A DNA stretch of 64,000 nt, from NCBI GenBank assembly GCA_965219565.1, contig OZ244780.1, forward strand, positions 2,476,256-2,540,255. Reading direction: 5' to 3'. Within the stretch, counting starts at the first letter, position 1; each line of letters starts with the position of its first letter. The notes beneath the pieces were generated by a model. That model was not told the DNA's origin, did not search any database, and worked only from the letters and a program-made list of their open reading frames with translations. Of the stretch, positions 37,676 through 56,325 are shown piece after piece. The DNA is from Dehalococcoidia bacterium (GTDB lineage: Bacteria > Chloroflexota > Dehalococcoidia > Lucifugimonadales > JAGWBF01). Both the position numbers and the translations under genes were made by a program.

Positions 37676-38479
37676 CTAGCTGAGGCTTCCCATGAACTTG
37701 CGCCACACATCGACGCACTTGTCGGGATCGGTGTGCTGCACGAAGCCCGACGTTCCCTTTATGACCTCCAGCCTGGCGCCTGGAACCAGGCTGACTATGC
37801 CGTCTGCTCTTCCAGGCTCCCGGTTGTACTCCCCCTCGGAGATGAGGACCAGGGTCGGCGTGGTGATTTCGGGCAATATGGCAGTCAAGTCTACGGTGGA
37901 CAGGTACGTCAGGGTTTCCACAACCACATGCTGCGCAGTGGGTATCATCTGCTGGGCGTACCATTCCCTGTATCCGTTGTCGTTGTCCCCCGGCGGCGCC
38001 CTGCGGTCCATTTCCTGCCGCACCCAGGGTTCGACTCCCTGTGCCGCCACCAGGTCCCGGTTCTCCACGTAGGACGACGCCCCCACGAACTTAAAGGGTG
38101 AGCTGCACACGGTCAGGCTCTTGAGACGGTCGGGATACATATGGGCGAACCTCATGGAGATGGTGCCGCCCACCGTCTCCCCCACAAGATGGACTTTGTC
38201 CAGCCCCATTGCGTCCAAGAAGTTCCTTATGTCATCCGCGAACCCTTCCAGGGACCAGTCGTAGCCAGGAGCGGGCACGGACGAGTTCCCGTAGCCCCTG
38301 GCATCTATGCGCAGCGTTCTGTACTGGCGGGCCAACTCCGGGACCCATCCGTACCATAGCTTGTGGTTCTTGGCCTGGCCGTGGTGCATCACCACAGCGT
38401 CGGGAGTGCGCCAGGGGTCTGTGTAGTCGTTGTCCTCGTAGAACATTTCAAGGGAGCCCGGCAAGCTCACGGTGGGCAT
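37676..38479 (-). CDS. alpha/beta hydrolase
   Basis: Start MPTVSL at 38479 with a GGAG-containing RBS (GGGGGTGGAG). HHGQAKN, nucleophile elbow GETVGG. The tracked ORF extends to 38668 without support. Confidence 0.75.
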   Translation of the reverse strand: MPTVSLPGSLEMFYEDNDYTDPWRTPDAVVMHHGQAKNHKLWYGWVPELARQYRTLRIDARGYGNSSVPAPGYDWSLEGFADDIRNFLDAMGLDKVHLVGETVGGTISMRFAHMYPDRLKSLTVCSSPFKFVGASSYVENRDLVAAQGVEPWVRQEMDRRAPPGDNDNGYREWYAQQMIPTAQHVVVETLTYLSTVDLTAILPEITTPTLVLISEGEYNREPGRADGIVSLVPGARLEVIKGTSGFVQHTDPDKCVDVWRKFMGSLS

Positions 38480-38656
38480 ACTCCACCCCCAATACGGTCG
38501 AAAATCCAGGGCGATTATAGCATGACCCGTCCCACGGCTTCCCGACGCCGACGGGCGGGCGGAGGCCGGACCCGACAGCGCCTCACAAGCAAACGCCACG
38601 CGTTTACGACATCGGGTCCTACGCAAACCGATCTCCGGTGGGGTAAAATAGCCGCC

Positions 38657-41551
38657 ATGCCCCGCCACACGGAACCAAGCGCCAATAACGACCTGTCAGA
38701 CCTGTTGCGGCCCATGCTCCCCGGCTGGGAAGTGCGTTCCGAGAACACTCAGATCATCTTGGGCCACCCGGGCCTGCAACCCGATATCCTGATTACGGTG
38801 CAGGGCCGCTCTCCGGTGGTTATAGAGGCAGAATACATGCCCGCCCACACAGTGGAGGCGGAAGCTCTGTCCCGCCTGGGGCTGTCCGTCACCGTCCATA
38901 CCCGTCCCATCGAGGCGGCCATAGCCCTACGCTACCCAGAGGGTGTCGCCGACTCCGACGACCTCTTGACTGCGCTAGCAAACGCCCGGGTCTCCTATGC
39001 AGTTTTCACCGAGGACGGCAAGCGTTTCCCCGAATCGGGATGGCTGGACGGCTCCCCCATTGACCTTGCCGACCTTATACGCTTGGTGTCCGTGCCACAG
39101 CGTGCCGTCAACGCGGCTGCCACCGCACTGGAGAAAGGCATTGACCGAGCCGCCAACATTCTGAACGACATGTCAAAATTGCGACCCGGCATCACCGCCG
39201 ACATCGCCCGACTGCTGGGCATGAGAGATGTTCCTCAGACCCGGCGCATGGCCGGCGCCATCATTGCAAACGCACTGGTGTTTCACGAACGCATCGCCGG
39301 AATGCACGACGGAGTAAAACCGACCGAGATGGTGTGTGGGCCCGACGCTGCCAATCCCAAGGGCGAAACACTGGCTGCGTGGACCGAAATCCTGGAAGTC
39401 AACTACTGGCCCATATTCGCTATTGGCAAGGACATCCTCCGGCAGCTTCCGTCCGGAGACGCCGCCAACATCCTCAGGACTTTGCAATACACGGTCGACG
39501 AAGTAAACGCAGCCGGCATCAACAGCGCCCATGACCTGACCGGGCGCATCTTCCAACGCCTCATTGCCGACCGGAAATATCTGGCCACTTTCTATACCCT
39601 GCCAGCCTCGGCGGCCTTGCTGGCCCGGCTGGCTGTGGCCAAAATCGACCGTGTAGACTGGAGCGACGTAGAGGCCATTGGCAAGATGCGTATCGCCGAC
39701 TTCGCCTGCGGCACCGGCGCCCTCCTTGCCGCAGTCTACGAGCAGATAGCCGCCCTCTATGAACGAACCGGAGGGGACCCGGCGAAACTACATCCCATGA
39801 TGATGGAAGAGGCACTCTTCGGCTGCGACGTAATGCCGTCGGCAATCCACATCACAGGCTCGACCCTGTCGGGCGCCCAACCAGCCGTCCAATTCTTTCG
39901 GTCCCGTCTCTACACCCTCCCCTACGGTCGGCAACGAGACGGCAGTGTTTCCATTGGCTCCCTTGAGCTGTTGCAGTCCTCGGCGACGGGGGTCTTGTTC
40001 AACACCAGCGATCCTGCCTTGCGTACCAGCAGCATAGGAGAGGAGACCGCTAGCTACGTAATCGCCGACGTCCCTGACGAAGGCTTCGACGTGGTGATAA
40101 TGAACCCGCCGTTTACCAGCAACACTAAACACTATGATGCTAGCGAAGGAGTTGTAAACGCCGCTTTTGCCGCCTTCGATTCTTCTGAGGAAGACCAGTC
40201 CAGAATGGCGAATCGGCTGAGACAGCTGGCCACGGACACTTGCTATCACGGACATGCCGGAGAAGGTTCCGTATTCGCCGCGCTTGCCGACAAAAAACTA
40301 CACCCCAACGGGGTTATCGCTTTAGTGCTGCCCTTCACAGCAATCAACGGAGCCTCGTGGTCGAAGTTCAGGGAACTTATTGCCACACAATATGACGACG
40401 TTACGATTGTAAGCATCGCGGCCAATGGACACGACATGTCCTTTTCATCGGACACCGGCATAGCAGAGTGTCTTATCATAGGTCGCAAAATAGCTCGAGA
40501 TGAAGAGCCTAGCTATCGCGCAAAGTTCGTCTCTTTGCGGCACAGGCCGTCAAGTTTTGTTGATGCTCAACTGCTCGCCAGAACTATCGTGTCAGATATG
40601 GCCACTCGTCAATTGGAAGACGGGCCATATGGCGGCATACCCATATATAGCGGAGACGCCTTGACGGGAGAGTTGCTGGATGCTCCCATCGACAGGCACG
40701 AGAACGGCTGGGGCGCCGCTCGAATTCGTGATGCCTCAGTAGCCCAGACCGCGTATTCGTTGTCTTCCGGAAAGCTTTGGTTACCTGCGGAACCTAGTTC
40801 TTATGACATACCAGTAGCGCAATTGAGCCAAGTCGGGCGGCGGGGACTGGATTCTCAGTTGTTCATTAGCTCTGCCCACAAAGGTCCCTTCACCAAGGCG
40901 CCGCCCAGCCCCACCGCCACCTATCCCGCACTGTGGAACCACGACGCCAAGAATGAAACACGAATGGTCTGTACCCCTGACTCTCAATTGTTGGTCAGAC
41001 CCGGAATGGAGGCCAAAGCCTCTGAGGTTTGGGCAACTGCCAGCCGTGTTCATATCAACCGTGATTTTACTTTCGGTTCACAGGCTCTCGTCATTGCATT
41101 TACCGAATGGAGGTCCATAGGCGGCCGGGTGTGGCCCAACTTGATCTTCGGCGACGACAGATTCGACTATGCCTCCATGGTATGGGGAAACAGTACGTTA
41201 GGGCTTCTGAGTTATTGGTGGCACTCAAGCCGGCAGCAATCGAGCAAGGCTGGAATGACCATCCGATCTGCCGAAACGCTGCCAGTGCTGGACTTTCGCA
41301 CTCTGAGCGACGAGCAGTTGGCCTTGGCCCAGGAGATATTCGAAGAGTTCAGGGACAAGGAGCTCAAGCCTGCTTACCTGGCCGACGCCGACCCCAACCG
41401 TGCGCTGCTGGACAGACGCGTGGTCTGCGATCTGCTGGGATTCAACGAAAGCGTCTATGAAGGTGTCCGGCGTCTTGCCGCCAAGTGGTGCGCTGAGCCT
41501 TCGGTGCACGGCGGTAAGGCCCGACCCAAAGACGCCGTATTCGAGATGTAA
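38657..41551 (+). CDS. large N6-adenine-type SAM-dependent methyltransferase with N-terminal nuclease-like region (candidate type IIG/IIL restriction-modification enzyme)
   Basis: 964 aa from the ATG at 38657. Motif I DFACGTGALL (39698-39718) then motif IV NPPF (40103-40114), which is gamma-class order. N-terminal PDILITVQGRSPVVIEAEY (38780-38836). About 450 aa of C-terminal region of unknown fold. Confidence 0.65.
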   Translation: MPRHTEPSANNDLSDLLRPMLPGWEVRSENTQIILGHPGLQPDILITVQGRSPVVIEAEYMPAHTVEAEALSRLGLSVTVHTRPIEAAIALRYPEGVADSDDLLTALANARVSYAVFTEDGKRFPESGWLDGSPIDLADLIRLVSVPQRAVNAAATALEKGIDRAANILNDMSKLRPGITADIARLLGMRDVPQTRRMAGAIIANALVFHERIAGMHDGVKPTEMVCGPDAANPKGETLAAWTEILEVNYWPIFAIGKDILRQLPSGDAANILRTLQYTVDEVNAAGINSAHDLTGRIFQRLIADRKYLATFYTLPASAALLARLAVAKIDRVDWSDVEAIGKMRIADFACGTGALLAAVYEQIAALYERTGGDPAKLHPMMMEEALFGCDVMPSAIHITGSTLSGAQPAVQFFRSRLYTLPYGRQRDGSVSIGSLELLQSSATGVLFNTSDPALRTSSIGEETASYVIADVPDEGFDVVIMNPPFTSNTKHYDASEGVVNAAFAAFDSSEEDQSRMANRLRQLATDTCYHGHAGEGSVFAALADKKLHPNGVIALVLPFTAINGASWSKFRELIATQYDDVTIVSIAANGHDMSFSSDTGIAECLIIGRKIARDEEPSYRAKFVSLRHRPSSFVDAQLLARTIVSDMATRQLEDGPYGGIPIYSGDALTGELLDAPIDRHENGWGAARIRDASVAQTAYSLSSGKLWLPAEPSSYDIPVAQLSQVGRRGLDSQLFISSAHKGPFTKAPPSPTATYPALWNHDAKNETRMVCTPDSQLLVRPGMEAKASEVWATASRVHINRDFTFGSQALVIAFTEWRSIGGRVWPNLIFGDDRFDYASMVWGNSTLGLLSYWWHSSRQQSSKAGMTIRSAETLPVLDFRTLSDEQLALAQEIFEEFRDKELKPAYLADADPNRALLDRRVVCDLLGFNESVYEGVRRLAAKWCAEPSVHGGKARPKDAVFEM

Positions 41552-41728: not shown

Positions 41729-42553
41729 TTGCAACAAGACATCAAAGTGTCGGTGGGGGTGGGGGAGGAACCCCAAAGGCAGGACGACAGGCCGGTCAAA
41801 CTCCGCACTCAAGGTCTCAAGGCTTGGTACGGACAGGCGCTTGCCCTGCGGGACGTGGACCTGGCTATACCGTCCGAGCGGGTGACGGCCATAATAGGGC
41901 CTTCGGGCTGCGGCAAAAGCACCCTGCTTCGCTGCTTCAACCGCATGAACGACCTCATACCCGACGCACGGATAGAAGGACAGATACTCTTCAACGACGT
42001 GGACATCTACTCCCCGGAGGTGGACGCAACAGAGATACGCTACCGCATCGGGATGGTCTTTCAGAAGCCCAATCCTTTCCCAAAGTCCATCTACGACAAC
42101 GTAGCCTTCGGTCTGCGCATCAACGGATACAGGGGCAACATCGGGGACATGGTCGAGCGAACGCTGAAGCAGGCCGCACTCTGGGATGAGGTGAAAGACC
42201 GGGTGAAGAAAAGCGCCTTGACCCTCTCTGGGGGCCAACAGCAGAGGCTGTGCATAGCAAGGGCCCTGGCCGTGGAACCCGACGTAATCCTGATGGACGA
42301 GCCATGCTCAGCGTTGGACCCCATCGCAACTCTTGCCATCGAAGACCTGGTGCGTTCGCTTTCCTCGCAGTATACGATTATAATAGTCACCCACAACATG
42401 CAGCAGGCGGCCCGGGTGTCCGACCGAACTGCTTTCCTTTCGGTCGGCCCAGACAGCGCCGGTCACCTTGTTGAGTACGGGAACACTCGCCAGCTCTTCA
42501 CCAATCCCACTGACGAGAGAACCGAAGCCTACATTACAGGAAGATTCGGATGA
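41729..42553 (+). CDS. pstB: phosphate ABC transporter ATP-binding protein
   Basis: 274 aa. [55 protein letters not shown] start. Confidence 0.9.
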
Positions 42554-43257
42554 CCGAAGAGCGAATAGGTATCACGAGGGAAGAGCCCATGCGGGTGCGG
42601 TCTGGGCTGGACCGCCAACTCCGCTTCCTCCAGGACGAAGTGCTGACCCTGGGGAGCATGGTGGAGAAGTCCATCGCCAGGGCCGTGGACGCCCTGGACC
42701 GCCGGGACCTGGAAGCCTCTCAGCAGGTCATCATCGAAGACGATCTGGTAGACAGCAAACGCTTCGAAATCGAGGAGAGGTGCATCGACCTTATAGCCAC
42801 CCAGCAGCCTATGGCCGGGGACCTGCGCATCCTGGTGTCCATGCTGCACATTGCGGTGGAACTGGAACGCATGGGCGACTATGCCGAGGGAATCGCCAAA
42901 ATCAACATCATGATGGGGGATGAGCCTCTCATAAAACCCCTCATAGACGTCCCGTTGATGACCGAAAAGGCGACCCGAATGCTTCGTCGCAGCCTGGAGG
43001 CTTTGGTGAACCGCGACACGGTGACGGCGCGCCAAGTGTGCAATGACGACGATGAAGTGGATGCGCTGTACCAGACGGTTTACCGGGACCTGCTGGACAT
43101 CATGATTAAGGACCCCACCACCATTCAACGAGCCACATACCTGTTGTGGGTGGCCCACGACTTGGAGCGAATCGCAGATAGGGCGACCAACGTAGCCGAG
43201 CGAGTGGTGTATCTAGTGACGGGCAAGATGGAGGAGATAAACGTCTCCAAGTACTAG
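42550..43257 (+). CDS. phoU: phosphate signalling complex protein PhoU
   Basis: 235 aa with the duplicated PhoU repeat ([13 protein letters not shown] / [13 protein letters not shown]). Overlaps the pstB stop by 4 nt. Confidence 0.9.
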
Positions 43258-44041: not shown

Positions 44042-44165
44042 AGCTCACCTCCAAGTTATGGTTTGCGCTTGGGAATAGGATTTGGAACAGACTAACATGA
44101 AAGCGGAAGCCTGAGAAGAATTGTTAGGACCGATGCTGGGACTTCAACACTCCCGTTCCATCCGA

Positions 44166-44573
44166 TTACCGATTCACAGGACCAAAACCCTTGAGCCGTA
44201 CGGCCGGAAGCCTTTTTAGCCTTTGATTAAGCGGGTCCACCTCAATGCCCACTGACTCTAGGGCAGTCACTCCCAGCAAAGGTTCGCTCTCCGCCTCACC
44301 CATAACAATCGTGCCGCCAACGATTTCACCCATGAACTCGATGTCTGCTGTCGTTACATCCATTCGAATTTCACTGCCGTCGGCCAGGGAATATACTCGC
44401 TGCCCTTTGGGTGTAAGACCTATGGATTCCAGACACGGCCGAGGAACAAGGGTATCGGTCGCCCCAGTGTCGACCAAGAACAGCCCCTCCCAAACCCTTT
44501 CTGGTTCGGCAGGGTTCCGTATGGCAACGGTTACATGTGTTGCTCCCATCTCAGGTCCTTTCTCGCTCACCAA
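44166..44573 (-). CDS. retropepsin-like (clan AA) aspartic protease
   Basis: 135 aa. Catalytic LVDTGATDTLV, then a GxxxxG-rich flap-like region. Confidence 0.7.
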   Translation of the reverse strand: MVSEKGPEMGATHVTVAIRNPAEPERVWEGLFLVDTGATDTLVPRPCLESIGLTPKGQRVYSLADGSEIRMDVTTADIEFMGEIVGGTIVMGEAESEPLLGVTALESVGIEVDPLNQRLKRLPAVRLKGFGPVNR

Positions 44574-44698
44574 AGATCAACTCAATACTAACATACCCCG
44601 CCAGGTGACCATGTCAGCATCCGATTCAACGCTAACAGGCACTGTCCAGGGGGACCGAGAAGAAGTCCAATCCATGTTTGTCTAAAAGGTCATCAGCC

Positions 44699-44728
44699 TT
44701 GACACTAATCTCGCTCAAGGGGTAGCAT
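44699..44728 (+). promoter_or_regulatory. candidate promoter TTGACA-N18-TAGCAT
   Basis: Perfect -35 at 44699-44704 and a weak -10 at 44723-44728. GGAGG RBS at 44747-44751, 5 nt before the ATG at 44757. Confidence 0.3.
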
Positions 44729-44756
44729 CCAGGCAACACTAGACACGGAGGTTCGG

Positions 44757-45293
44757 ATGGCAATAGGAAAAATCAGCATCCTGGACCCCACCGCCCAGTC
44801 CAACACCCAGGACTCCGGCTTGGCCCCCAGGGTCGGCGGACTAGGGGGCGGGACGCTGGGCCTGATCACCAATAGCTGGCGGAGCTTCGACGTGGTGTCA
44901 AACCACATCGAGCAGATGGCCAAGGACCGGTACGAGGTCCGTGAGGTGATGAGGACCATCAACCCTGACGTTTCCAGCCCCACTCCCAAAGACACGCTGA
45001 ACATCCTCATCGACAAGTCGGACGCCGCCATCGTCGGCATGGGACATTGAGGGTCCTGCACAACGTGGAGTGTCCACGACGCAGTTTCCCTGGATGAAAG
45101 CGGAGTCCCTTCAGTCGTGATAGTCACGGAGCAGTTCAGCCGGCTGGCTTCCACGATAGCCAAGTCCCGGGGCAGGCCCGGCCTCCCCATCCTTGTCCTG
45201 CCAGCCAACATAGAAGACCTGTCCGACAATGAGTTGGAGGACTTGGCACATAAGACCCTGGACCAGGCGGCAGAGAAACTGACAGAGGTCTAG
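44757..45293 (+). CDS. UGSC-motif protein, candidate selenoprotein (in-frame TGA at 45048-45050 read as Sec)
   Basis: The frame stays open for 81 codons after the TGA, to TAG 45291-45293. Read-through gives DAAIVGMGH-U-GSCTTWSVHDAV... A hairpin starts 13 nt after the TGA. The next gene starts 8 nt after the TAG. Confidence 0.7.
45057..45083 (+). promoter_or_regulatory. SECIS-like hairpin downstream of the UGA
   Basis: CGTGG-AGTGT-CCACG (45064-45078) with an outer TGC/GCA pairing (45057-59 / 45081-83). The core stem begins 13 nt after the UGA. Confidence 0.45.
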
Positions 45294-45300
45294 ACAGGCT

Positions 45301-46344
45301 GTGACCAGCCCTCCCCTAAAATCGGAACGTTCCGAAATCGAGGACTCGCCAGAGGCAGTCCTCGATTTCGTATTGAATCAGGGTTGGGGAGACGGCCTCC
45401 CCGTGATTCCCCCCACTGAAGAACGAGTGCGGGCAATGGTGGAAGGCTCCGGCCTGCCCGCAGACCATCTCATTGGCAGCGTGGGGCCCGCCAAAGGCGA
45501 GGCCACCATCGAGAAGATTGCCGTGAACGCCGTCATGGCCGGATGCAAACCGGAGTACATGCCGGTTCTGACAGCCGCGATGGAAGCGGTATGCGAGTCC
45601 CAGTTCAACATCGACGGGGTGCAGAGCACGACCAATCCCTGTGGCGTCGGTATAGTGGTCAACGGCCCGATACGCAATACGCTGGACATCAACTGCTCCC
45701 GCAACTGCATGGGCCCGGGGTGGCAAGCAAACGCTACTATAGGCCGCGCCATGTCATTGATGTGGCTGAACATCGGCGGGGCCAAGCCCGGAGAGGTGGA
45801 CAAGGCCTCCCACGGCTATCCTGGCAAGTACACCTTGTGTTTCGGAGAGGACGAGGAGCACACGCCCTGGGAGCCGCTCCACGTCGAGCGAGGGTTCAAA
45901 GCCGAGGAGAACACGGTGACAATTAACTCCTTCAACGGCACCCTGAACATCATCGGGGCCACCTACACTGAGATAGACAGCATGCTCCATGTCATAGCCC
46001 ACGACTTCAGCCAAATGGGGAGCAACAACCTGCACCTTGGCAAGGGCAATCCGGGTCTGGTCCTGACAGCGGGCCATGCGCGCTGGGCGCATGAAGCCGG
46101 AATGTCCAAGTCCGACGTGAAGGAGTTCGTATACCGGAACAGCGGCTTCCCGGTTGAGAAGCTGAGGCCCATGATCCGGCGGAACCGGATTGACGCGGTG
46201 ATAGAAGACGGAGTCGTCCGGCAAGTGCGTAAGCCCGACGACATCATGATAGTGGTGGCGGGCGGTGTGGAACCCTACCACGCCGTGCTTATGCCGACCT
46301 TTGGCGACTCCTGGGCCGTCACTAAGCCCATCCGCGTTCCCTGA
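45301..46344 (+). CDS. uncharacterised conserved-looking protein, partner of the UGSC gene
   Basis: 347 aa, GTG start with a GAGG-type RBS. GWGDGLPVIPPTEERV, AVNAVMAGCKPEYMPV, several Cys (NPCG, INCSRNCMGPG). No family recognised. Confidence 0.6.
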   Translation: MTSPPLKSERSEIEDSPEAVLDFVLNQGWGDGLPVIPPTEERVRAMVEGSGLPADHLIGSVGPAKGEATIEKIAVNAVMAGCKPEYMPVLTAAMEAVCESQFNIDGVQSTTNPCGVGIVVNGPIRNTLDINCSRNCMGPGWQANATIGRAMSLMWLNIGGAKPGEVDKASHGYPGKYTLCFGEDEEHTPWEPLHVERGFKAEENTVTINSFNGTLNIIGATYTEIDSMLHVIAHDFSQMGSNNLHLGKGNPGLVLTAGHARWAHEAGMSKSDVKEFVYRNSGFPVEKLRPMIRRNRIDAVIEDGVVRQVRKPDDIMIVVAGGVEPYHAVLMPTFGDSWAVTKPIRVP

Positions 46345-46350
46345 GCAGAG

Positions 46351-47493
46351 CTATTTGACGGGCTTGGCCCACTCTGGTATCTGTTTGGTGGGAAGCTGGA
46401 CTGTCGCCGTGCCCTTGGTGGTCATTTCCTTGCGCTGGTTCTCACCGATGAACTCTATGTCCACCAGCCGATCCTCACCCTCAACGCGTTTGTCAGTGAC
46501 TTTCCCGCGGAGCCAGGTCGTGTCCCCTACCATGTTGAAGCGGCGGAGCTCCACGTACATTTTCTTCAGAAACCCGTCGTCGCCCATCCAATTGGTGAAG
46601 AGGTTCCCAACCCAGGAACAGCGCTGGCAGCCGTAGTCGTAGGCTCCGGGAAGGCCTGCGCTGGTGGCCGCCTCCTCGATGTCATGGACGCGCACGATGG
46701 CTTCCTGGGCGCCGGTGTTGGGGTCACGAAAGCCCCATGAAGGATGACGCCGAACTTCCTTTAGTTGAAGGCCGTGGGCCAGTCCGCCGATGCAGCCTGC
46801 CACAAAGGCGGTGATGTCTCCGTGGCTCAGGGGTCCCTTGACCACCGGGCCAATTTCGTCGCCCACGTTCACGTCGTCCCACCACCTGGGGTTGGCGCCC
46901 CTGATTTCCTCGTTGAGGACTGCATCCTCTATCTCATCGATTTCGTCCCTTGTGTATGCGTAGGGCTGAAAGTCGTACTTCCTGTTCTCCCGGGCGGCGG
47001 TGCGTTCGGCCCTAAAGTTCCAACCGCGGGTGCGGGCAATGACCTCGCCGCGCTGGTTATAGTAGTGGCAGGTGGAGGACTGCTTGATGGTCTTTCCGGC
47101 GAACCTGCTGGGCATCTCCTCCAAGTCCGAGAACTGCTCCTTCACGGAGATGCGGTCGTCCATGTGTATGGGGCGGAACCACTCCCAATCGGAGCCCGAG
47201 TGGAAGGCATGGACCCCAGGAAGTCCTCCGGTGCGGCCTGAGCACCAGTAGACGCTGTACAAGAAGCAGGGGGGAGCTATGATGGTCCCATACTTTGTCT
47301 GGCGGGCGTACGATTCGTCCTGATATAGGGGATTCGGGTCGCCTATGCCCTGGCAGAAATGACGAATGGCGTCACGCGATGCAAACTCGTTGAAGAGTCC
47401 TACACCGTATTGCCTGGGCCTGTTGAAAGCGCCCAGTCTGTCCCTCAGGCGTTGCAGCCCCTCTTCCGTTATCTTTCCAGCTTCCAGCACCAT
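46351..47493 (-). CDS. double hot-dog (MaoC / FAS1-dehydratase-like) acyl dehydratase
   Basis: 380 aa. N-terminal IRHFCQGIGDPNPLY and a second hot-dog half ending in a beta-sheet-rich region. First gene of a CoA-transferase operon. Confidence 0.6.
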   Translation of the reverse strand: MVLEAGKITEEGLQRLRDRLGAFNRPRQYGVGLFNEFASRDAIRHFCQGIGDPNPLYQDESYARQTKYGTIIAPPCFLYSVYWCSGRTGGLPGVHAFHSGSDWEWFRPIHMDDRISVKEQFSDLEEMPSRFAGKTIKQSSTCHYYNQRGEVIARTRGWNFRAERTAARENRKYDFQPYAYTRDEIDEIEDAVLNEEIRGANPRWWDDVNVGDEIGPVVKGPLSHGDITAFVAGCIGGLAHGLQLKEVRRHPSWGFRDPNTGAQEAIVRVHDIEEAATSAGLPGAYDYGCQRCSWVGNLFTNWMGDDGFLKKMYVELRRFNMVGDTTWLRGKVTDKRVEGEDRLVDIEFIGENQRKEMTTKGTATVQLPTKQIPEWAKPVK

Positions 47494-47585
47494 GAAACAA
47501 AACCTCCTGGGTTTATGGGTACCTTTACACGGGAGCTAGGTCCGGCGAACCCTATGGTAACGGTTCCCGGCCAACTTAGACAACC

Positions 47586-48821
47586 TCAGTGGACAGCGCC
47601 GCTCTCCACAAGCAGCTTCAAACTGGGAGCTGGTACGCCCAGGAGTTCCCCGAAAATGTACTCGTTGTGTTCTCCGAGCAACGGAGCCGGACGCCGCACC
47701 TTGGCTTCGGCGCCGCTCATCACCCAGGGTTGCCCGTAGAGCCATTCGGCCCCGATGTGGGGATGTTCAGTCTCCAGAAACGCATTTCGTTGGTGGAAGT
47801 GCTCCTCCTGGAACTGGTCGCCTATGTGCATTACGGTCATCGCCGCCACTCCGGCGCCTTGCAGAAGTTCGGTCACTTCCTCAGGACTTCTTTGAGAGGT
47901 CCAAGCCGCCACGTGTTTGTCCAACTCCGCTCGGTTAACGTGACGCAAGTAACGGTCTCCGAACCGGGAGTCCTTGGTCCAGTCCGGGAAGCCCAAGGCT
48001 TCACAGAAGGCCAGCCACTCCTCCTGTGTCCGCACGGCTATGGACACCCACCTGTCGTCGCCCGCGCAGGGGTAATTATTGTGAGGGCCAAACTCAGGGT
48101 CAACGTTGCCCATGGGTTCCGAGACCCTTCCGTTCATCGAAAAACCCAGCAGGCTCTCGCCCATCATGGCCGTGGACGCCTCTAACTGGGCCACCTCCAC
48201 GTACTGGCCTTGGCCGGTGCGGTTCCGGTGGCGCAGGGCGGCGGCGGCGGCCAGCGCCGCGTGCAGCGACGCCACTGCATCGCACCACGCCGACTGGATT
48301 TCACCCACCAGAGGCTCGTCGGGATACCCCACCAGGCTCATCATGCCAGAGAGGGCTTGGACGATGGGGGCGTAAGCCAGAATGTCCCTTTCGGGACCCG
48401 TCTCCCCCGCCGCGGGCATGGAGACGACGATGATGTCGGGCCGCAAGGCCTTAAGCGCCTCGTATCCCAGCCCAAGCCGGTCCATGACTCCGGGAGAGAA
48501 GTTGTGCATCACTACGTCGCTCTGGGCAATCAGATCCTTCACGAGGGCCAGGCCGTCGGGTTCCTTCAGGTTGACCGTGACGCACATTTTATTGCGGTTG
48601 AGGCTGTGGTACAGAGGCTGAAGCTCCGGCCAAAGTCCCCGGTCTCCCCCGGCAAAGTCCTCACCCACCAAGGGTCTGCCCAGGCGAAGCCCGTCCATTC
48701 GGACGCGGCTCTCGACCTTTATCACCTCGGCGCCCATGTCTCCCAGCAATTGAGCGCCCATAGGCCCCGCCCATGCAGTGCCGAAGTCCACAACTCTGTA
48801 TCGTTCCAGGGGCAGAGCCAT
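47586..48821 (-). CDS. CaiB/BaiF family III CoA-transferase
   Basis: 411 aa. YRVVDFGTAWAGPMGAQLLGDMGAEVIKVE and family III architecture. Confidence 0.85.
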   Translation of the reverse strand: MALPLERYRVVDFGTAWAGPMGAQLLGDMGAEVIKVESRVRMDGLRLGRPLVGEDFAGGDRGLWPELQPLYHSLNRNKMCVTVNLKEPDGLALVKDLIAQSDVVMHNFSPGVMDRLGLGYEALKALRPDIIVVSMPAAGETGPERDILAYAPIVQALSGMMSLVGYPDEPLVGEIQSAWCDAVASLHAALAAAAALRHRNRTGQGQYVEVAQLEASTAMMGESLLGFSMNGRVSEPMGNVDPEFGPHNNYPCAGDDRWVSIAVRTQEEWLAFCEALGFPDWTKDSRFGDRYLRHVNRAELDKHVAAWTSQRSPEEVTELLQGAGVAAMTVMHIGDQFQEEHFHQRNAFLETEHPHIGAEWLYGQPWVMSGAEAKVRRPAPLLGEHNEYIFGELLGVPAPSLKLLVESGAVH

Positions 48822-48823
48822 CG

Positions 48824-50083
48824 CTATATGATTCCCGTCCTTCTCATCAGCGTCAGGTCTTCCGGACTATGCCCCAACTGGCCGCATATAATCTCCCGGT
48901 TGTGCTGGCCCAGGGTCGGGGCGGGTCTGACCAGCTTCCAGGGAGTTTCCTGGAAGCGGATTGGAGCGCCGGGGTACCTCAACGTGCCGGCCTTAGGGTG
49001 GTCCAACTCATGGAAGAACTCCCTCTCGTTCATGTGCTCGCTGTTCATCACGTCGTCTATGGTGCGGACAGGCACACAGGGCACCCGATTTTCCATGCAC
49101 ATCTCCATGATTTCCGCCTTGGTGTGCTCCATGAACCAGGGCGTAATCAAGGCTTCAGCCTCCTCCGGGTACTCCTCCGTCATGGCCCGCCGGTTACGAA
49201 ATTTGGGGTCCTCTGTCCATTCCGGGTCGCCGATCATGTGGAGAAATCGCTGGTACTGCTCCATCTGGGGACAGTCGATGCAGACGTAGCCGTCTTTGCA
49301 GGGGAGCACACAGTTGGGGAAAAGCCCCAGCCGCATCCGATTCCCCGAGCGCCATCCGGCTATCCCCCGGTATATGTATGTGGGCAGATGGTAGCCGGTG
49401 AGTATTACGGCAATCACCTGGGACTCGGACACGTCCACAAGCTGGCCCTCACCGCTGATGTCTCGTCCTACAAGTGCGATAGTGGTGGCCAAGGCTGCGG
49501 TTACGCCCGCCATGAAGCTGGCCTGGTAGGCGGGTGTCGTCAGAGGCTCTCTATGGGGATGACCGTTCCCAAAACTGAAGCCTCCCGCTGCGTTAGCGGT
49601 CAGGTCGCATCCCTTGTAGTCCTTGTAAGGGCCGGTCCGGCCATAGGGGGTAATGGAGGTGACTATCAGCCGGGGGACCTCTTGCTTAAGGGTCTCGTAC
49701 TCCAGACCCAACTCGCGGGTTTCGCTGACGGGCCGGTTCTCTACGAATACGTCCGCCCATCGGAGGAGGTCCAGAAGAATTCCCCCGCCGGCCGGATTTC
49801 CGGGGTCGAGACTTATCCCACGCTTGTTGGAATTCAAGAACAGGAACAGCCCGCTCCGCTCACGATCGGGGACGTCTCCGGGGAAGGGGCCGTGGATCCT
49901 GGCCTCGTCGCCGTAGAACGGCGGCTCCACCTTGATCACGTCCGCCCCCATGTCGGCCATCATCTTGGAGCAGTACGGCCCTGAAATGGAGCTGCCCCAT
50001 TCTACGACCCGTACCCCGTCCAGCGGACCTGATGGACCGGTCTTGTCGCCCACCACTGTCCTAACCTTCCTCAGCCACGCCAC
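48824..50083 (-). CDS. CaiB/BaiF family III CoA-transferase
   Basis: 419 aa. LDGVRVVEWGSSISGPYCSKMMADMGADVIKVEPP. Its stop is 2 nt before the next paralog start. Confidence 0.85.
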   Translation of the reverse strand: MAWLRKVRTVVGDKTGPSGPLDGVRVVEWGSSISGPYCSKMMADMGADVIKVEPPFYGDEARIHGPFPGDVPDRERSGLFLFLNSNKRGISLDPGNPAGGGILLDLLRWADVFVENRPVSETRELGLEYETLKQEVPRLIVTSITPYGRTGPYKDYKGCDLTANAAGGFSFGNGHPHREPLTTPAYQASFMAGVTAALATTIALVGRDISGEGQLVDVSESQVIAVILTGYHLPTYIYRGIAGWRSGNRMRLGLFPNCVLPCKDGYVCIDCPQMEQYQRFLHMIGDPEWTEDPKFRNRRAMTEEYPEEAEALITPWFMEHTKAEIMEMCMENRVPCVPVRTIDDVMNSEHMNEREFFHELDHPKAGTLRYPGAPIRFQETPWKLVRPAPTLGQHNREIICGQLGHSPEDLTLMRRTGII

Positions 50084-54805: not shown

Positions 54806-54842
54806 AACGGGAGCGGCGCCTTGGCTCAGGGCTGCCCTAAAC

Positions 54843-56325
54843 TCAAGGCTGGTAGATAAAAGCGTCGGGCCTGAACGAGGCCCACGAAAACCACAGTGCG
54901 CTGGGGTAGTGGGGCAGCGGGTCCAGTCTGGCGCCCCCCAACGGTCCCGACGTAGCAAGTCCCAGTAGGTTCCAGGAACTCCCCGTCTCCTCGTCGACGA
55001 ACACGCCGTCCTTGCCGTCTGGGCTCCGGGAAAAGCTCAACCGGTCTCCGTCGACTATGGGGGAGAAGACACCTACGGACCCCACCTCGCGCCCCAGGGC
55101 GATTACCTGGTTGTCCAGGGCCGAGGCCGTGTGCGGCTCGTAGAACACCACGATAGGCTCGCCTCCGACCGTCGCTTCCACCACTGGCTGCTCCCGTAGG
55201 ACCGAGTAGGGCGCAGCGAAAGCCTCTCCGTTCAATTCTACGCCCCGCCACCCGCGTCATCCTCGACAACGTCACTTCGTTGGAACCCGACGTGATTCCC
55301 AGCTGGTTGTAGGTGTCGTAGCCTGCGTAGGCTGACATGCCATAAGGAATGCTCGTGTCGGGCTTCGAAAGGACTTTGCCGTCAGGGAAACTATCCTTGA
55401 AGTCCGACCAGGACACCATCGCCATAGGCAACTGCTCCAGCTTCACGCCCGCGTACACGCCAACTATGCCCTCTCCGCCGAACTCCTGCCACCAGGACTC
55501 GGTCTGCCGGTCATACATTATCAGGTTGAGGCGGCGCAGCTTGCCTGAAACGCCGAAGTCCAGGACCCCCCCATCCAACGTCCGCCTGTACACGAAGGCG
55601 GTGTTGCAGAGTGGTCAATAAGTGACCACAACAGGCTCTCCTCCCACCAAGTCGTTGACCAGCTCGTGGAACATCATTATCTGGATTGGGTAGGCCCTGT
55701 GGTCTCCGTCGATGCTGACCGTCTGCACCGGCTCCCAGTCGGCCAACCACTGGCTTGCCGATTCCACCGACTCAAACTGGGGTGCGTCGATGGACTCTAT
55801 GCCGTCCTTGGGAGGACCGCCGCCCCGGATTCCAAGAAAATCGACGGTCTTGAACCTGAAGTCCGTCTTCGGCCATTCGGAGGTGTTTATGAGCGCTTCG
55901 GCCAACTCACGGCGAGCGTCCGACCGGCTTATAGCTTGCACTCCTCCCTTGGAATACTCGACGGGTTCGGGCGTGGACGTGGGACGTGGCGAGGCGGTGG
56001 GATTGGGTTGAGGCGTCGGAACGGGTGTGGCTGTTAGCGGAGCCGTGGGACTGGGAGCCGCAGTAGGGCTGGGCGCAGGCATCGGTGTGGCATTGGGCGT
56101 TGGGCTTGGAGCCGGAGAGCCATCAGAACCGTCCCCGCATGCCGCAACAGCGACAACCAACATGACTGCGGCTGTCAACCTCAGGGCCAAAACCGCCGGC
56201 TTGGAATGGGAAATGCGACGACGGGAGAAACGCCTCGGGAGAACTTCGCCCTGATGCCCGGCTTCCAAAGAGGTCCTATATTCCTTCCGTGTAGACGAAT
56301 CGATCCGCTGTAGCAGGTTTGACAA
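54843..56325 (-). CDS. DUF3179 lipoprotein, interrupted as assembled: in-frame TGA at the conserved Cys (candidate Sec) plus an apparent 1-nt frameshift near 55242
   Basis: Lipobox VAVAAC and a Pro/Thr/Ser linker. DGDHRAYPIQIMMFHELVND...VVVTY-TGA-PLCNTAFVY...IMYDRQTESWWQ continues in the same frame (tracked ORF 54826..55593). The C-terminal part (NGEAFAAPYSVL...) is in the frame of ORF 54843..55235. Confidence 0.6.
55582..55601 (-). promoter_or_regulatory. SECIS-like hairpin downstream of the UGA in the DUF3179 gene
   Basis: On the coding strand CCGCCT-TCGTGTAC-AGGCGG, with the stem starting 13 nt after the UGA (55617..55615). Confidence 0.4.

Follow-up and report, generated by a model that had tools for sequence, protein, structure and literature searches.

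Two adjoining plus-strand genes lie within a 64,000-nucleotide (nt) stretch of contig OZ244780.1 from a Dehalococcoidia bacterium, a stretch referred to below as the window. The first encodes a member of the UGSC family of selenoproteins and the second a 347-aa protein, here called the partner, which belongs to an uncatalogued family (Table 1). A first-pass annotation of this DNA had placed both genes on one strand behind a single candidate promoter, with opposite-strand genes on either side. These statements are confirmed, the flanking genes at 44166-44573 and 46351-47493 both being on the minus strand. The intergenic spacing requires a small correction, as the gap between the TAG stop codon of UGSC (45291-45293) and the GTG start codon of the partner (45301) is 7 nt rather than 8. 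The putative promoter, TTGACA-N18-TAGCAT, is the top sigma-70-like match within 44100-46800 and agrees with 10 of 12 consensus positions; four such sites were found in that region against 0.9 expected from shuffles. The partner start codon agrees with the N-termini of homologues, and the open reading frame (ORF) holds all four peptides that had been quoted for it.

The UGSC reading frame contains a single in-frame TGA. Readthrough gives the sequence ...AAIVGMGH-U-GSC-TTWSVHD..., in which the motif H-U-G-S-C, with U for selenocysteine (Sec), occupies residues 97-101. When U is scored as C, the protein matches Pfam PF24696 with E=2e-43 (149 bits, cut-off 25), and the alignment spans the whole domain, residues 8-176 corresponding to model positions 2-171/172. 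Against the NCBIfam equivalog model NF041046, with U likewise replaced by C, the score is 106.1 bits, under the cut-off of 125. By these profile scores the window protein belongs to the family broadly defined, although it does not reach the curated equivalog cut-off. Its nearest database relatives are 97-aa fragments that gene callers had cut at the same TGA.

Conservation and covariation both support the decoding of this TGA as Sec. Among 82 full-length UGSC copies that adjoin partner genes, the aligned codon is TGA in 78 and encodes Cys in three; the remaining copy is degenerate and carries neither Sec nor the motif cysteine. A hairpin resembling a selenocysteine insertion sequence (SECIS) follows the TGA, and the segment 45045-45110 folds with -24.2 kcal/mol (z=-1.8). 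The position of the hairpin is constant in homologues of many phyla, over the codons for T-S-W-S-V/I-H-D. Covariation was assessed over 54 distinct sequences from loci that had been found via the partner and not via the hairpin. In this set 87.7% of cells are paired, two-sided changes occur in six of the eight pairs (for example UGG to UGC together with GUC to GUG), and the covariation score of 0.247 was reached by none of 500 shuffles, with slid controls at 0.015-0.086. Judged from sequence, the TGA of the window is a selenocysteine codon and the hairpin is as expected of a bacterial SECIS element. No tRNA-Sec or sel gene was found in the 64-kb window, and Rfam and tRNA scans of it were empty. 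Among selenoenzymes, a preference for Sec as strong as that of this family is typical where Sec serves as nucleophile in catalysis or as the redox centre. Counts made in the Global Ocean Sampling (GOS) survey give 255 Sec-form against 21 Cys-form UGSC proteins, the strongest bias among those families of the survey's table that were considered (PMC2398784).

The association of UGSC with the partner was surveyed from both sides. The partner-seeded sample comprised 83 loci, 80 of them genome loci retrieved via partner peptide patterns and three obtained via protein look-up. A UGSC hidden Markov model found an adjacent UGSC gene on the same strand in 75 of the 83, from more than 10 phyla, mostly upstream of the partner and in about 17 cases immediately downstream; three of the eight exceptions lie at contig ends. 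Counted by copy, pairing within 400 nt applies to 84 of the 91 UGSC genes and to 85 of the 100 partner genes in these loci. The UGSC-seeded sample was blind to the partner, metagenome contigs having been scanned for the Sec codon plus the SECIS DNA pattern, and yielded 120 loci. A partner gene lies within 500 nt in 89 of them (86 downstream, three upstream) and at 520-620 nt in three more. It is 3.4 kb away in one locus and absent from another, and 26 loci end too near UGSC, on one or both sides, to be judged. Where there is enough flank, the partner is present in about 92 of 94. Adjacency of the two genes is far beyond chance and nearly obligatory in both search directions. Co-occurrence in other genomes had been set beforehand as the test by which the proposed unit could be refuted, and the outcome is strongly positive.

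The pair is distributed widely. In bacteria it is found in Chloroflexota/Dehalococcoidia, Betaproteobacteria (including Xenophilus azovorans DSM 13620), Binatia, Methylomirabilota, Alphaproteobacteria (Vineibacter terrae, Sphingomonas), Acidobacteriota, Actinomycetota and Nitrospinota, and in archaea it is found in haloarchaea (Natrialba asiatica) and methanogens (Methanobacteriaceae). Hyphomonas neptunium is a further cultured carrier. The Cys-form pairs of an Actinomycetes metagenome-assembled genome (MAG; L215) and of Methanobacterium are adjacent as well, and Natrialba asiatica DSM 12278 also has a natural Cys pair. Moreover, the two proteins occur as single-chain fusions in both orders. 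UGSC precedes the partner in P0137, P0139 and P0167, and also in P0122 and P0151, which start just past Sec where gene callers truncated them. The partner precedes UGSC in P0156, P0180, P0187 and P0246, all of which end in ...GD immediately ahead of Sec. With co-occurrence in both directions and fusions in both orders, the earlier description of a self-contained two-gene unit is borne out. UGSC and the partner are most likely two subunits of one selenium-dependent enzyme.

The larger of these proteins had been assigned to no recognised family, an assessment that holds. Neither the partner nor any of 43 homologues matches a Pfam or NCBIfam model at E<=5, and a profile of the family finds nothing among PDB sequences at E<=10. 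The family is nevertheless large, with at least 7997 homologous clusters at 90% identity and 7306 clusters at 50% identity, and the members named in source databases all carry the label 'hypothetical protein'. An AlphaFold2 model of the partner was obtained with high confidence (predicted local distance difference test, pLDDT, 93.6; predicted template modelling score, pTM, 0.92). The top Foldseek matches in the PDB are class I fumarate hydratases (7xky_A, E=1.4e-4; 6uqn_B, E=1.2e-3), with template modelling (TM) scores of 0.22-0.30 and a root-mean-square deviation (rmsd) of about 16 A, followed by Toblerone-fold amidohydrolases and chorismatase. As modelled, the partner fold is one without a close solved relative.

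Conservation within the partner family is concentrated in a few polar and cysteine residues. Across about 100 divergent copies these are D31 (in DGLPxxPPT), N76, C82, N144, R149 (in ANATIGRA), E183 and E185. Cys82 is present in 98% of 88 diverse representatives and in about 97% of 100 locus copies, and Cys180 in 93% and about 89%, respectively. Glu183 occurs in every tabulated copy and Glu185 in almost every one. Cys180 comes after the loop that the model predicts with least confidence (block 171-180, pLDDT 69). A three-cysteine iron-sulfur (Fe-S) site within the partner was considered and rejected because the third candidate, C136, is only 43% conserved.

The structure of UGSC was modelled with AlphaFold2 on P0307, a Cys-form homologue. 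The model (pLDDT 89.8) shows an alpha/beta domain of five strands, with the D-C/U-G-S-C motif where strand 87-93 ends and helix 96-111 begins. Its PDB matches are generic ones, namely flavodoxin domains, lumazine synthase, CheY-like receivers and phosphotransferase system (PTS) IIB proteins, at TM 0.4-0.5, and they include no thioredoxin fold, GrdB/PrdB or fumarase beta domain. The UGSC fold is, on this model, flavodoxin-like and not thioredoxin-like. Resemblance to GrdB/PrdB around the Sec had also been suggested. Pfam GRDB (PF07355) has no match in 28 UGSC members at E<=5, the Gly_reductase family (PrdA/GrdE) has none in the partner and its 43 homologues at the same threshold, and PDB sequences searched with the UGSC and partner profiles gave nothing meaningful. 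The GrdB/PrdB-like and thioredoxin-like ideas are unsupported as homology, because neither appears among the fold matches and no GRDB match exists.

What does find support in the earlier proposal of a Sec-dependent redox pair is the redox role itself. Cys101, the second position of the U-x-x-C motif, is about 90% conserved. In one protein, P0252, a partner domain is joined to a thioredoxin-disulfide reductase (TIGR01292, 331 bits, CAVC motif), and in two loci (L042, L015) a gene resembling thioredoxin reductase lies directly upstream of UGSC, followed by a gene for a DUF6282 protein and then the partner. A redox role is supported by the conserved motif together with this fusion and adjacency, which point to redox turnover. 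Loci in which a DUF6282 gene (about 290 aa) separates UGSC from the partner form a sub-type of the module, seen at L042 2600-6020, L015 44-2983 and L026 2476-4897.

The genes around the pair vary among loci yet are catabolic. No third gene is constant over the 83 partner-seeded loci. Most frequent among the neighbours are TctC/Bug receptors (15), family III coenzyme A (CoA)-transferases (12), luciferase-like oxidoreductases (11) and amidohydrolases (7+7), and SBP_bac_5, SDR, acyl-CoA dehydrogenase and enoyl-CoA hydratase proteins also occur. Other relatives have FMN-dependent 2-hydroxyacid oxidases, HpcH/HpaI aldolase or GlcD-like oxidases as neighbours. In the subclade to which the window belongs (L086-L089), three or four CoA-transferase genes and one for a 380-aa MaoC-like hydratase come after the pair in the same orientation. 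Orthologues of the window's hydratase and CoA-transferases lie downstream on the same strand as the pair in L086/L087 and L088/L089, with 53-62% identity, near the 57-60% of the partner itself; in the window these neighbours lie on the opposite strand. The CoA-transferases and hydratase at 46351-50083 are a probable pathway context and not part of the bicistron. From such neighbourhoods the substrates would likely be small organic acids or their CoA esters.

Table 1. Features of the UGSC-partner locus and its surroundings; positions are those of the window unless another locus is named.
Feature	Position	Strand	Remarks
Candidate sigma-70-type promoter, TTGACA-N18-TAGCAT	44699-44728	+	Putative; named from its consensus match only
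Shine-Dalgarno-like GGAGG	44747-44751	+	5 nt ahead of the UGSC ATG; direct sequence reading
UGSC-family selenoprotein gene	44757-45293	+	178 aa including Sec98; translation and Pfam match
In-frame TGA (Sec98)	45048-45050	+	First residue of U-G-S-C; aligned codon in homologues
SECIS-like hairpin	45056-45084	+	Lower stem CUGC/GCAG, upper stem CGUGGA/UCCACG, apical loop GUG 45070-45072
Partner gene	45301-46344	+	347 aa, GTG start; uncatalogued family; proposed catalytic/substrate-binding subunit
Partner Cys82 codon	45544-45546	+	Motif NAVMAGC; conserved; directly ahead of model helix 84-97
Partner Cys180 codon	45838-45840	+	Motif C-F-G-E-D-E-E; usually conserved
MaoC-like double-hotdog hydratase	46351-47493	-	Pfam
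Two family III CoA-transferases	47586-48821, 48824-50083	-	Pfam
106-107-aa ORF upstream of UGSC in close relatives	L086 6030-6353; L088 5960-6280; L002 5055-5375; L004 104-415 (-)		

Two further observations concern these neighbours. In L088 (10622-13135) a single fused protein of 837 aa corresponds to both window CoA-transferases (47586-50083) joined, a fusion which suggests that the two function as a heterodimer. In a Methanobacterium sp. (L213/L214 1-6696) a Cys-type pair adjoins a class II fumarase, a ferredoxin-type Fe-S protein (Fer2_3/Fer4), an FMN_dh-rubredoxin fusion and an amino-acid permease.

We tentatively favor, at a little under even chances, a two-subunit selenoenzyme that is recycled by the thioredoxin system and acts on small carboxylates or CoA esters. 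Its parts list is observed or modelled, and the chemistry is inferred. The partner would be the substrate-binding or catalytic subunit, its conserved residues forming the substrate pocket, and UGSC would dock its Sec into that pocket to supply a selenolate. The selenolate could then attack a bound small carboxylate, an acyl-CoA-type substrate, or an adduct of either with Cys82. Resolution of the selenium-linked intermediate by Cys101 or by a partner cysteine would give a selenenylsulfide and a reduced or cleaved product, and thioredoxin reductase/thioredoxin with NAD(P)H would re-reduce the selenenylsulfide. In the window, the enzyme would probably supply a pathway for C4/C5-type organic acids that comprises the CoA-transferases and the MaoC-type hydratase.

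Such a mechanism would share its logic with the glycine and proline reductases that depend on Sec, although the proteins themselves are unrelated. D-proline reductase (PrdA/PrdB) and glycine/sarcosine/betaine reductase (GrdE/GrdB) likewise combine a small-to-medium U-x-x-C selenoprotein with a larger substrate-activating subunit, and in both systems Sec is rarely swapped for Cys. The Prd and Grd reductases are re-reduced by a thiol/thioredoxin system. In contrast, the UGSC pair shows no sequence similarity to GRDB or Gly_reductase, has no GrdA- or GrdC/D-type component, and occurs in lineages that are largely aerobic or facultative, within CoA-transferase catabolic clusters rather than Stickland operons. 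Nothing observed here points to a pyruvoyl group, as in PrdA/GrdE, or to self-cleavage of the partner. The analogy is chemical only, because homology to GrdB/PrdB or PrdA/GrdE is absent.

That lack of homology counts against the proposed thioredoxin-recycled selenoenzyme, and so do several other observations. The UGSC structure was modelled on a Cys-form homologue with 33% identity to the window protein and not on the window protein itself. The link to thioredoxin reductase consists of one fusion cluster and two loci of about 200, and most loci have no dedicated reductase. A few UGSC proteins read U-G-S-S and are devoid of the resolving Cys (L052, L053, L061), and about 11% of partners have no Cys180; the resolving thiol is therefore not fixed. 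Finally, partners with no UGSC within 5 kb occur in L001, L007, L038 and L056, and the Methanothermus fervidus UGSC, a Cys-type protein, stands without a partner in its vicinity.

The same arrangement of residues could in principle serve chemistry without net redox change. A redox-neutral isomerase, racemase or cis-trans isomerase, in which Sec98 and Cys82 would face each other across an inter-subunit site as a nucleophile or acid-base pair, can be envisaged by analogy with Asp/Glu racemase-type enzymes and the two-cysteine maleate isomerase. In the models, the Sec/Cys of UGSC and Cys82 of the partner are both placed at helix N-termini of alpha/beta units, an arrangement that matches two-cysteine racemases. 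The two genes form a unit of their own, in most cases with no reductase dedicated to them in the vicinity, and their many paralogues per genome, variable catabolic contexts and neighbours such as hydantoinases, amidohydrolases and CoA-transferase III members would suit such an enzyme. However, a pure acid-base role does not need Cys101, which is one helical turn from Sec and well conserved, and leaves both the fusion and the adjacency to thioredoxin reductase unexplained. Near-obligate Sec is generally a mark of redox or nucleophilic-reductive catalysis among selenoenzymes, and no racemase-type fold is found among the top 50 PDB matches of the UGSC model. A redox-neutral enzyme of this kind is judged fairly unlikely.

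The U-x-x-C motif at a helix N-terminus is also the classic arrangement of a redoxin, in the manner of the thioredoxin reductase/thioredoxin and AhpF/AhpC-type relays, in which a redox X-x-x-C occupies the same position. UGSC could accordingly be a dedicated redoxin outside the catalytic site that maintains or switches the activity of the partner by reducing its Cys82-Cys180 disulfide or an oxidised Cys82. The genetic links to a TrxB-type flavoprotein (the fusion P0252 and the adjacency in L042 and L015) would fit a chain from thioredoxin reductase to redoxin to target, and the partner offers two well-conserved cysteines. Yet fusions in both orders and adjacency of about 98% are unusual for a maintenance factor, and the roughly 11% of partners that are devoid of Cys180 still have a Sec-containing UGSC. 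Unlike a thioredoxin relay, UGSC has a flavodoxin-like rather than a thioredoxin-like fold in the model, a single specific partner instead of many targets, and Sec almost exclusively, a bias that in the GOS counts lies far above that of ordinary redoxin families (PMC2398784). We regard a redoxin role of this kind as having a fairly small chance of being correct.

A metal or Fe-S centre at the interface, bound by Sec98, Cys101, Cys82 and Cys180 together with acidic residues of the partner, would make the pair a metallo-hydro-lyase or oxidoreductase, possibly a distant likeness of the two-subunit class I fumarate/tartrate hydratases. The subunit sizes (347 and 178 aa) resemble those of the alpha/beta hydratases, the neighbouring genes handle dicarboxylates or CoA esters, and the Methanobacterium locus brings together a fumarase and a ferredoxin-type Fe-S protein. 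The partner's top structural matches, 7xky_A and 6uqn_B, are indeed of this class, and one UGSC member shows a weak Fumerase_C match (E=0.13). Even so, the matches are weak (TM 0.22-0.30, rmsd about 16 A), and hhalign comparison of the partner profile with E. coli TtdA and of the UGSC profile with TtdB gave probabilities below 1%. The partner holds no conserved three-Cys cluster site, and the UGSC model matches flavodoxin-like folds and not the fumarase beta domain. Homology to class I fumarate hydratase or L-tartrate dehydratase (FumA-type, TtdAB) was rejected on these four counts, and a metal centre at the interface appears quite improbable. That there is no module at all, the TGA being an ordinary stop, the UGSC frame two unrelated short ORFs and the adjacency fortuitous, agrees with the public gene calls that split UGSC at the TGA but is effectively refuted by the computations here, as one Pfam domain covers both halves, 78 of 82 copies share TGA at a single aligned codon and three others have Cys there, a covarying hairpin follows, and adjacency and fusions recur across phyla.

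UGSC has been known as a selenoprotein family since 2007-2008 (Zhang & Gladyshev), and a 'UGSC/Unknown_1' fusion was reported in 2008 (PMC2398784). It is catalogued as Pfam PF24696 and NCBIfam NF041046, and the window gene is a new member. Published work regards UGSC as a stand-alone protein of unknown function, and a thioredoxin-like fold was guessed for it (PMC2398784). Some 18 years on, no function is assigned to it in the literature searched, and reviews up to 2026 list it as unknown. The fusions described here are probably of the reported 'UGSC/Unknown_1' type, which would make 'Unknown_1' the partner family. The first-pass annotation had singled out the pair as a candidate undescribed system, which holds in part: the family and a fusion had already been reported, and what appears new is the near-obligate pairing in both directions, the fusions in both orders, the folds of the two proteins, flavodoxin-like in the case of UGSC, and the link to thioredoxin reductase.

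These features would turn an orphan selenoprotein into a defined two-component enzyme through its near-constant pairing with one protein of about 350 aa, and they bring into view a partner family of more than 7000 clusters at 50% identity for which neither Pfam nor NCBIfam has a model. A wider interpretation is possible, if on balance doubtful. UGSC and the partner may constitute an unrecognised class of two-subunit selenoenzymes, in which a flavodoxin-like Sec subunit docks on a catalytic subunit of new fold to perform thioredoxin-driven reductive chemistry. Such a class would act on small carboxylates or CoA esters by selenoether or selenenylsulfide cycling, in archaea as well as in aerobic and facultative bacteria, and it would have diversified into many substrate-specific paralogues, with at least 11 partner copies in one Chloroflexota MAG. 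If true, it would explain why replacement of Sec by Cys is nearly absent from a selenoprotein family that is very abundant in aquatic environments.

The MAG in question, a groundwater Chloroflexi genome (JACPQD01), holds its partner copies mostly alongside Sec-containing UGSC genes (L005, L006, L007, L016, L045, L076), and some are arranged as tandem arrays of three pairs. This copy number implies a large selenoproteome missed by annotation. Because gene callers split UGSC at the TGA, the selenoproteomes and selenium demand of such multi-paralogue genomes escape routine annotation. One partner copy of this genome (L007 4992-8686) has no UGSC; it is flanked on one side by an SBP_bac_5 solute-binding protein and on the other by a protein of 800 aa, which is considered pyruvate formate-lyase-like because it terminates with the glycyl-radical signature RVAGYS.

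In the closest relatives of the window pair, an ORF of 106-107 aa is conserved directly upstream of UGSC (Table 1). It was considered as a third component and rejected, being absent from the whole 64-kb window; it has no Pfam or NCBIfam match.

Elsewhere in the window, a DUF3179 (PF11376) gene at 54826-56325 on the minus strand appears as two adjacent ORFs, which are halves joined by a TGA at 55618-55620; readthrough gives ...VVVTY-U-PLC-NTA.... DUF3179 appears among the listed selenoprotein families (PMC13188914) and has a UxxC motif, and for this reason the gene is probably the second selenoprotein gene of the window. Further upstream, a plus-strand ORF of 1062 aa (38363-41551) carries an NPPF motif (VVIMNPPFTS) such as N6-adenine DNA methyltransferases typically have. 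It precedes pstB-phoU-like genes at 41729-43257, a designation given from sequence alone to a 274-aa ABC-type ATPase and a 235-aa protein.

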